Positions 1 through 486 of a stretch of 486 nt of DNA are shown here, piece after piece. The notes under the pieces are model-generated. The model saw only the letters and a list, made by a program, of their open reading frames with translations, searched no databases and was not told the origin of the DNA. The number at the start of each line of letters is the position of its first letter. The stretch's first letter is position 1. The DNA comes from Escherichia coli (GTDB taxonomy: Bacteria > Pseudomonadota > Gammaproteobacteria > Enterobacterales > Enterobacteriaceae): the NCBI RefSeq assembly GCF_003334785.1, contig NZ_QOWV01000086.1; one strand, given 5' to 3'. The position numbers and the translations under genes were made by a program.

Positions 1-167
1 CTGCGTAATACAGCCCGTCTGCCGTCTGGTTTTTCAGGACGGTTTTTCCAGTATCTGTAGCTGCTGCGATGAACCCCGAACACATGGCAGAGTGTGACCA
101 CAGGATAATGCGCTCTGAGTTTCCTGATTATCGAGAACTGTTCAGGGAGTCTGACATCAAGAGCGCG
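1..167 (-). pseudogene. insO: IS3-family (IS911-like) transposase OrfB, N-proximal fragment; 5' side interrupted by IS30, 3' side continues beyond window position 1
   Basis: Reverse-complement translation from 167 down to 3 gives 55 codons with no stop: [56 protein letters not shown]. This matches, from memory, the region of IS911 OrfB just downstream of the OrfA/OrfB frameshift site. No start codon or RBS for this frame is present before the IS30 boundary, consistent with disruption. The symbol insO is the E. coli K-12 name for the IS911 orfB fragment and is assigned from recollection. Confidence 0.7.
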
Positions 168-169
168 GT
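1..169 (-). mobile_element. Fragment of an IS3-family insertion sequence (IS911-like), truncated at position 169/170 by an IS30 insertion
   Basis: The minus strand translates without stops into a sequence with the N-proximal signature of IS3-family OrfB transposases. The sequence stops abruptly where the IS30 terminal repeat begins at 170. No IS911 terminal repeat is visible in the window, so this is an internal fragment. Confidence 0.75.
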
Positions 170-195
170 TGTAGATTCAATTGGTCAACGCAACA
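170..195 (+). repeat. IS30 left terminal inverted repeat (IRL), 26 bp
   Basis: TGTAGATTCAATTGGTCAACGCAACA lies directly upstream of the transposase gene. The matching right repeat is outside the window and cannot be checked here. Confidence 0.85.
172..177 (+). promoter_or_regulatory. -10-like hexamer TAGATT inside the IS30 IRL
   Basis: TAGATT matches TATAAT at 4 of 6 positions. In IS30 biology the IRL is known to supply a -10 element that combines with a -35 (TTGACC) from an abutting right repeat in (IS30)2 junctions. Here the upstream partner would be flanking DNA. The hexamer is seen directly; its function is inferred. Confidence 0.35.
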
Positions 196-218
196 GTTAT
201 GTGAAAACATGGGGTTGC

Positions 219-223
219 GGAGG
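219..223 (+). promoter_or_regulatory. Shine-Dalgarno sequence for the IS30 transposase
   Basis: GGAGG sits 8 nt upstream of the ATG at 232 (GGAGGTTTTTTGAATG), which is ideal composition and spacing. Confidence 0.85.
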
Positions 224-231
224 TTTTTTGA

Positions 232-486
232 ATGAGACGAACATTTACAGCAGAGGAAAAAGCCTCTGTTTTTGAACTATGGAAGAACGGAACAGGCTTC
301 AGTGAAATAGCGAATATCCTGGGTTCAAAACCCGGAACGATCTTCACTATGTTAAGGGATACTGGCGGCATAAAACCCCATGAGCATAAGCGGGCTGTAG
401 CTCACCTGACACTGTCTGAGCGCGAGGAGATACGAGCTGGTTTGTCAGCCAAAATGAGCATTCGTGCGATAGCTACTGCGCTGAAT
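232..486 (+). CDS. insI: IS30 transposase (DDE transposase, IS30 family), N-terminal 85 codons; 3' partial
   Basis: Frame 1 is open from the ATG at 232 to the window end: MRRTFTAEEKASVFELWKNGTGFSEIANILGSKPGTIFTMLRDTGGIKPHEHKRAVAHLTLSEREEIRAGLSAKMSIRAIATALN. I recognise this as the N-terminus of the E. coli IS30 transposase, which carries the helix-turn-helix DNA-binding region that recognises the IS30 ends. A strong RBS precedes it and it lies immediately inside the IRL. It is missing from the supplied ORF track because no stop codon falls in the window. Confidence 0.95.
   Translation, partial: MRRTFTAEEKASVFELWKNGTGFSEIANILGSKPGTIFTMLRDTGGIKPHEHKRAVAHLTLSEREEIRAGLSAKMSIRAIATALN

Follow-up and report, generated by a model that had tools for sequence, protein, structure and literature searches.

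The stretch of Escherichia coli DNA considered here, 486 nt in length and called the window below, consists of two parts joined between positions 169 and 170, and the question raised by this locus is how the two parts came together and what the event meant for the element that was interrupted. In a preliminary description, made from the letters of the window alone, the junction was taken for an IS30 nested in an IS911-like element, and the flanks, the target duplication and the colinear reconstruction presented in this work all agree with that proposal. In our opinion, it is nearly certain that the window represents the left junction formed when IS30 was inserted, by simple transposition, into an older element of the IS911 type, and nothing in the evidence contradicts this reading. 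The locus was also supposed to be a known one, and this is so: the nested insertion is ordinary in structure, belongs to a kind familiar from K-12, has already been annotated in hundreds of genomes and is not new.

The junction and its two elements

Positions 1–169 (minus strand) come from the orfB side of an IS911-like element of the IS3 family. They match complete genomes at 100% and end at IS30, and in the matching complete genomes they are labelled by PGAP as 'IS3 family transposase, frameshifted, incomplete'. An OrfB reading frame of 55 stop-free codons occupies positions 3–167 on the minus strand; these codons are residues 6–60, numbered from the AUU/A6G site, and their translation aligns to OrfB of the reconstructed element described below and of other IS911 copies. 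The same strand carries at 128–169 the OrfA tail, namely the last 13 codons with the TAA stop (128–130), recognised by translation and by its match to the end of the reconstructed OrfA. This C-terminal frame, running from 169 to 128, was absent from the preliminary description. The homology to IS911 stops at 169. It had been stated that the OrfB frame is open up to this point, ends at the first base of IS30 and has no start codon. The frame is indeed open, but it does not end at 170 and continues for three codons into IS30, with a stop only at 177–179; a conventional start is indeed missing at its head, but in-frame GTG codons occur.

From position 170 the window reads TGTAGATTCAATTGG... (in a longer stretch, TGTAGATTCAATTGGTCAACGCAACA), and positions 170–486 (plus strand) are the first 317 nt of the 1221 bp of IS30, with 99.7% identity to K-12 IS30A and IS30D. 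The terminal inverted repeats of this element are 26 bp long, imperfect and begin with TGTAGATTCAAT; the left one is located at 170–195 (plus strand) and pairs with positions 5365–5390 of the full-length locus in E. coli ATCC 11775 (L001). The boundary is supported in three ways, by the 26-nt inverted-repeat pair 4170–4195/5365–5390 in L001, by the annotation of MG1655, which puts the ends of IS30A, IS30C and IS30D at identical bases, and by the identical terminus beside unrelated flanks at many loci.

IS30 is a copy-out-paste-in element with a DDE transposase. The transposase gene, insI, starts with ATG at 232, downstream of a GGAGG at 219–223, and its first 85 codons fill positions 232–486 (plus strand); the complete CDS (L001 4232–5383) is annotated by PGAP as 'IS30-like element IS30 family transposase'. 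InsI is a single long ORF of 383 aa, which gave 277 bits against the NCBIfam profile NF033563 (transpos_IS30) at a cutoff of 80. No match was obtained in the NCBIfam scan of the 85 N-terminal InsI residues encoded in the window, because the profile matches only from InsI residue 89 on. A scan of the window for consensus promoters and terminators found none and is uninformative on the IS30 promoter. Codon 52 of the transposase gene (385–387) is CAT (His) here versus CGT (Arg) in K-12 IS30A, IS30C and IS30D. In the window, IS30 departs from the K-12 copies only in this base change, at IS30 position 217, and the full element has 2–3 mismatches with the K-12 copies in 1221 positions.

A partial 'hypothetical protein' pseudogene was placed by PGAP across the IS911/IS30 junction, at 155–235 (plus strand). 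The chimeric junction has almost certainly produced an artefact of annotation in this case, and such a spurious product may serve as a warning to annotation pipelines.

A locus of ATCC 11775 that lies between fecE and tRNA-Leu is matched by the window at 100%; the gene order there is fecCDE, a small hypothetical gene, an IS3-family pseudogene, IS30, a partial 'transposase', two genes and tRNA-Leu. The right repeat of IS30, which the preliminary description proposed to seek beyond position 486, is present there: L001 4170–5390 is a complete IS30 of 1221 bp, in agreement with the length typical of this element (~1221 bp), and its repeats are 88% complementary and 1169 nt apart. As was foreseen in the same description, the orfA side of IS911 and the frameshift region, with the A6G motif TTAAAAAAGGCTAC, resume directly past the right repeat; read on the opposite strand, the DNA after IS30 is ...GAAATATTAAAAAAGGCTAC, the orfA end with the A-AAA-AAG slippery heptamer. 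The 2-bp target duplication expected around IS30 was found as well. The flanks are ...GCGCGGT–IS30–GTAGCCTTTTTT (longer, ...AGAGCGCGGT–IS30–GTAGCCTTTTTTAATATTTC...), with GT on both sides; one GT (AC on the IS911 strand) is at 168–169 of the window, and the second copy is past the IS30 right repeat. Other copies of IS30 are accompanied by the 2-bp duplications CT, GC, GA, TT, CC, AG and AC.

When IS30 and one GT are subtracted from L001, a colinear element of about 1249 bp remains, in which an intact OrfA of 100 aa and the OrfB frame overlap at ATTAAAAAAGG, with the heptamer A-AAA-AAG at the overlap. Over 1246 nt this reconstructed element is 94.9% identical to a copy named by PGAP 'IS3-like element IS911', whose frameshift site reads GGCTACCGCG. 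The reconstruction bears on another explanation, according to which the junction is a hybrid produced by recombination, or by IS30 adjacent deletion, between two IS30 copies, and the flanks were never contiguous. Hybrids of this type exist: K-12 IS30D is placed between the orfA side of IS911 and an inverted IS600 without a matching duplication, and the mixed IS911/IS600/other flanks found at loci L028, L029, L034 and L048 of the viral collection show later recombination between IS30 copies at such joints. However, the window-type flanks share one 2-bp duplication and, when joined, form a colinear IS911 with the canonical GGCTACCGCG and with continuous OrfA and OrfB frames, and a hybrid origin of the junction seems very improbable to us. 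A simple insertion of IS30 is the reading followed below.

The window was found at no less than 80% of its length in 778 of 5426 complete E. coli genomes. In many of them the whole window matches at 100%, so chance is not an issue. A probe of 201 nt centred on the junction was found in 791 of the 5426 genomes, with some plasmids among the carriers. Misassembly of draft genomes is often due to repeats. The identical junction in these 791 complete genomes, obtained in many laboratories and on many platforms, refutes an artefact of assembly or a chimera, and the probability of such an artefact is negligible. About 15% of complete E. coli genomes carry the junction, which marks a dead IS911 copy beside the fec operon. 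The marker value for strain background or prophage context, which had been attributed to it, is weak at this frequency and with plasmids among its carriers.

The orfA/orfB joint and the ACA scar

Positions 1–169 had been expected to be IS911/IS3-family DNA, and they are. The OrfB frame of the window matches positions 87–133 of the NCBIfam profile transpos_IS3 (NF033516) with E 5.7e-9, a fragment score that is under the full-length cutoff, and window positions 1–195 show 94.9% identity to K-12 IS911A-1. By the ISfinder convention, isoforms have a nucleotide identity of more than about 90%, and the identity of the reconstructed element to the PGAP-named copy, given above, places it within IS911. 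Terminal inverted repeats (TGAAGTGG...) and a target duplication of 3 bp are hallmarks of IS911. Our element has the left end, TGAAGTGGTTTACTGAATTTGGCC, and its right end, ...GACCACAACA, is not a perfect complement of the left one. A direct repeat of the first 8 bases precedes the IS911 left end in L001 at 5716–5733 (TGAAGTGG TGAAGTGGTTTACTG...). In the HSDQG (DDE) motif of orfB, at about 3575–3582 of L001 and about 420 bp beyond window position 1, there is a 1-nt deletion (TTCCA-GGCGAT versus TTCCACAGCGAT) which shifts the frame and is common to K-12 IS911B-1 and the scarred O26 copy considered below. An intact DDE domain in OrfB, as in active elements, is not found in this IS911 copy, which is a decayed family member and not a non-member.

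OrfA of the same element covers positions 1–84 of the transpos_IS3 profile and the window frame positions 87–133; therefore, the break is at the orfA/orfB joint. The transposase is split, as was thought initially, but at this frameshift joint and not inside orfB proper. The target on the IS911 strand is ATT-AAAAAAG-GCT-AC^CGCGCTC, i.e. AC^CGCGCTCTTGATG. The duplicated AC starts four nt after the slippery heptamer, and IS30 enters 5 nt 3' of the heptamer. As a result, orfA and the heptamer are on one side of IS30, and the OrfA tail, the stimulator region and all of orfB are on the other.

The IS911 transposase OrfAB is formed through -1 ribosomal frameshifting from orfA on the heptamer, aided by a downstream RNA structure. 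Rettberg and co-authors are said to have described this downstream stimulator in 1999 as a three-way junction. When the RNA corresponding to window 95–169 (minus strand) was folded, the centroid had the pairing GCGCUCU...AGAGCGC, and its energy was no better than that of shuffles (z = -0.10). Since the fold is indistinguishable from shuffles, the frameshift stimulator is taken here from the literature.

IS30 integrated at the AC downstream of the heptamer with duplication of 2 bp. By this event orfB was moved 1.2 kb from orfA and the heptamer, so that the OrfAB fusion transposase would no longer be made, and OrfA was shortened by 13 residues. As the OrfA tail is cut off from the rest of orfA, the insertion truncates OrfA besides severing orfB. 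We infer from the arrangement of the frames that neither OrfAB nor full-length OrfA would be made and that IS911 transposition would be lost. The HSDQG deletion is also present in this copy, and IS30 therefore need not be the first inactivating event.

A search of the 5426 genomes revealed uninterrupted copies of the reconstructed element with 99.8% identity. E. coli O26:H11 11368 (L004) has an IS911 copy at the same locus, between an AbiJ-NTD4 gene and fecE, and this copy is identical to that of ATCC 11775 over 1338 bp except for 3 extra bases at the insertion point. The scarred site, GGCT-AC-A-AC-CGCG, is located at L004 3830–3842 (NC_013361.1, about 5541660) and is equivalent to window 168–169. 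The 30 best uninterrupted matches are all from STEC lineages by strain name (O26, O103 and CDC STEC isolates). A never-occupied, unscarred copy of this IS911 variant was found in none of the 5426 genomes.

The flank (GGCTAC) and the terminus of IS30 (ATCTACA) have the CTAC microhomology in common, and a deletion between the two would yield exactly the ACA form. Such a deletion would remove IS30 and leave an in-frame ACA scar, and the scar may be a record of IS30 removal. The opposite order, with the ACA form ancestral to this IS911 copy, was judged unlikely: insertion into GGCTACAACCGCG cannot give GGCTAC–IS30–ACCGCG, and the canonical GGCTACCGCG with a 2-bp duplication does yield it. In published work, the IS-excision enhancer (IEE) is reported to stimulate the excision of elements of the IS30 family, to possess a microhomology end-joining activity and to occur in serotypes including O157:H7, O26:H11 and O103:H2 (PMC9943667; bioRxiv 10.1101/2023.06.07.543989).

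An IS911-like element was also noticed between the etp/gsp and ehx operons of the pO157-type plasmid pDEC4E-1 (NZ_CP038401.1; L019 2229–3469). It has the same ACA at the joint, its orfA and orfB are open, and PGAP describes it with a 'programmed frameshift'; from its sequence, the element is apparently intact. It is a mosaic, which around orfA and the joint shows 97–99% identity to the copy at the fec locus and in its other parts 80–92%. The scar may be older, may have been spread by gene conversion or may have a repeated origin; the latter is possible because the microhomology product is identical for either orientation of IS30.

The absence of a never-occupied copy of the variant in the 5426 genomes, together with the ACA scar in all the best uninterrupted copies, would also be in accordance with another history, in which IS30 entered IS911 elsewhere and the 2.47-kb composite was then transposed beside fecE via the IS911 ends, with a transposase acting in trans. 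Identical IS600::IS30 composites met several times on one contig (L038–L041) are compatible with the movement of such a composite. However, such movement is not required by the data, the structure of the window being identical under either history. In addition, this IS911 copy has a frameshifted orfB and a right end unlike the left repeat, and the mobility of the composite would therefore depend wholly on help in trans. We consider this history rather unlikely; the insertion of IS30 into the IS911-like element, wherever it took place, is what the junction records in both cases.

IS3-family frameshift joints as targets of IS30

The flanks of IS30 were surveyed with a scan for the left repeat in one genome per species (12 loci) and in a collection of viral contigs (33 more). 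Most of them end in ...ATATTAAAAAAGGCTAC, ...ATATTAAAAAAAGCAAC (IS600) or ...CATATTAAAAAAAGCCGC immediately before the element, or have the reverse complement on the other side. According to tblastn, such flanks encode an IS3-family OrfA to residue 87 and OrfB from residue 5–6, and the joint is always at OrfA residue 87/88. Joint-sited IS30 was observed at loci L002, L003, L007, L010, L012, L013, L015, L016, L023–L025, L027–L044 and L047–L050.

At least six different IS3-family elements carry IS30 at the orfA/orfB frameshift joint. Besides IS911 and its Yersinia relative with 89% OrfA identity, IS600 is struck at its own joint (AAAAAAAGCAAC^), and so are at least four further IS3-family elements, whose OrfA is 28–55% identical to that of IS911 and some of which are struck in both orientations. 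They comprise a 55%-identity element (L024, L025), a 35%-identity element with IS30 in both orientations (L049 and L050 versus L035 and L010) and two more (L012; L033). The struck elements are hosted by E. coli, Yersinia aleksiciae, Silvania, Kluyvera, Tatumella and contigs of the viral collection. Counts of copies overstate the number of events, since composites may have been inherited vertically or have moved as units, and only distinct junction types and opposite orientations were counted as independent; these imply at least seven independent events. The pattern of recurrent targeting itself looks real.

Identical IS600::IS30 composites, with the same junctions, AC duplication and orientation, were noted on single contigs (L038–L041 and L030–L032); L038–L041 are all from contig IMGVR_UViG_2869924733_000007. 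They could come from repeated hits of IS30 on IS600, always in a single orientation, or from movement of the whole composite.

A target model was built as a position weight matrix from 14 non-IS3 half-sites of IS30, checked by tblastn, and 3–12 kb were scanned per locus, with IS30 removed or in uninterrupted copies. The matrix pattern is an A-run and then GG a few bases ahead of the duplicated pair. The real site was ranked first at the window locus L001 (1/7225) and at three more IS911 loci, L003 (1/8740), L013 (1/6971) and L053 (1/3062). The IS600 joint was ranked 2/8214 at L004, where rank 1 belonged to the IS911 joint of the same locus. At L049 (5/10214), L012 (19/11889) and L025 (28/6179) the real sites were within the top 0.5%. 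The half-site AAAAAGGC, in which an A-run and GGC stand 1–2 nt before the duplicated pair, is also found at sites outside IS3 elements, for example in K-12 ydbA.

The frameshift window of the IS3 family, an A-rich run followed by GGC, thus resembles the half-site which IS30 would prefer elsewhere, and for this reason several elements of the IS3 family would be struck by IS30 at the homologous joint, in both orientations. The ranks suggest that such a sequence preference is the cause of the recurrent targeting. In a broader and only tentative form, it is conceivable that the IS3-family frameshift window (A6G or A7G plus a GC-rich stretch) is a conserved, cross-genus hot spot mimicking the IS30 half-site and that IS30 acts as a recurrent and site-specific inactivator uncoupling orfA from orfB, perhaps partly reversibly with an ACA scar. 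The searchable literature yielded no report that ties the preference of IS30 to frameshift windows of the IS3 family, although such a link may still have been reported. The striking of IS3-family joints by IS30, along with possible removal that leaves a scar, is a testable case of interference between mobile elements and may be of modest interest to those who study IS elements.

Comparison with K-12 and with known IS30 hot spots

K-12 MG1655 holds two textbook relatives of the junction, and the statement that the same architecture is known in K-12 is correct in kind but not in detail. The origin of the window from MG1655 was rejected, neither K-12 locus matching it across the junction.

The first relative is IS911A::IS30A (insN/insI1) in the cryptic prophage CP4-6, at 270.2–272.2 kb. 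The insertion is at the same AC after AAAAAAGGCT and has the same 2-bp duplication, and the flanks are ...AAAAAAGGCTAC at the left repeat and ACCGCGCTC after the right repeat. However, CP4-6 is another chromosomal locus, its IS911 part is 94.9% identical to window 1–169, and IS911A-1 is truncated, ending after 429 bp. IS30A is opposite in orientation to the window IS30, its left repeat adjoining the orfA side. Since the element cannot flip in place, IS30A is an independent event at the same dinucleotide. Junctions of the IS30A type were found in 1028 of the 5426 genomes.

The second relative is the fec locus of K-12 (IS911B/IS30D/IS600 fragment/IS911B-1; insO, insI3, insM; KpLE2), which lies in the neighbourhood of the window, on the yjhV/fecE side, with IS30D oriented as IS30 is in the window. 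The 1-nt HSDQG deletion is common to this locus and the window copy, and the IS911 copy is therefore orthologous. In place of window 50–169, K-12 has 327 bp of an inverted IS600, without a matching duplication. This fragment (L002 6681–7007, MG1655 4508680–4509006) extends from the IS600 left end to the frameshift joint of IS600 itself and abuts the left repeat of IS30D, which adjoins GTTGCTTTTTTTAATAT, the inverted orfA side of IS600; the breakpoint corresponds to window 49/50. The slippery run at the K-12 fec locus is A5, versus A6 in the window-type locus.

The fec structure of K-12 is best read as a derivative, and the window as the simple form. On the way to K-12, IS600 would have entered orfB at window 49/50. 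The stretch from the joint of IS600 to the left repeat of IS30 would then have been lost, either in an IS30 adjacent deletion that reached this joint or through recombination with a second IS30 located there. Used as a structural marker, the junction distinguishes the simple allele from two others, the rearranged one of K-12 and the scarred one of STEC.

IS30 has been described as using hot spots that are close to palindromic, the lambda LHS among them, and as producing a 2-bp duplication (Olasz et al. 1998, as cited in PMC9333248). The hot-spot behaviour of IS30, to the extent that it is outlined in PMC9333248, combines the 2-bp duplication with strong site specificity, and both features are seen at the loci described here.
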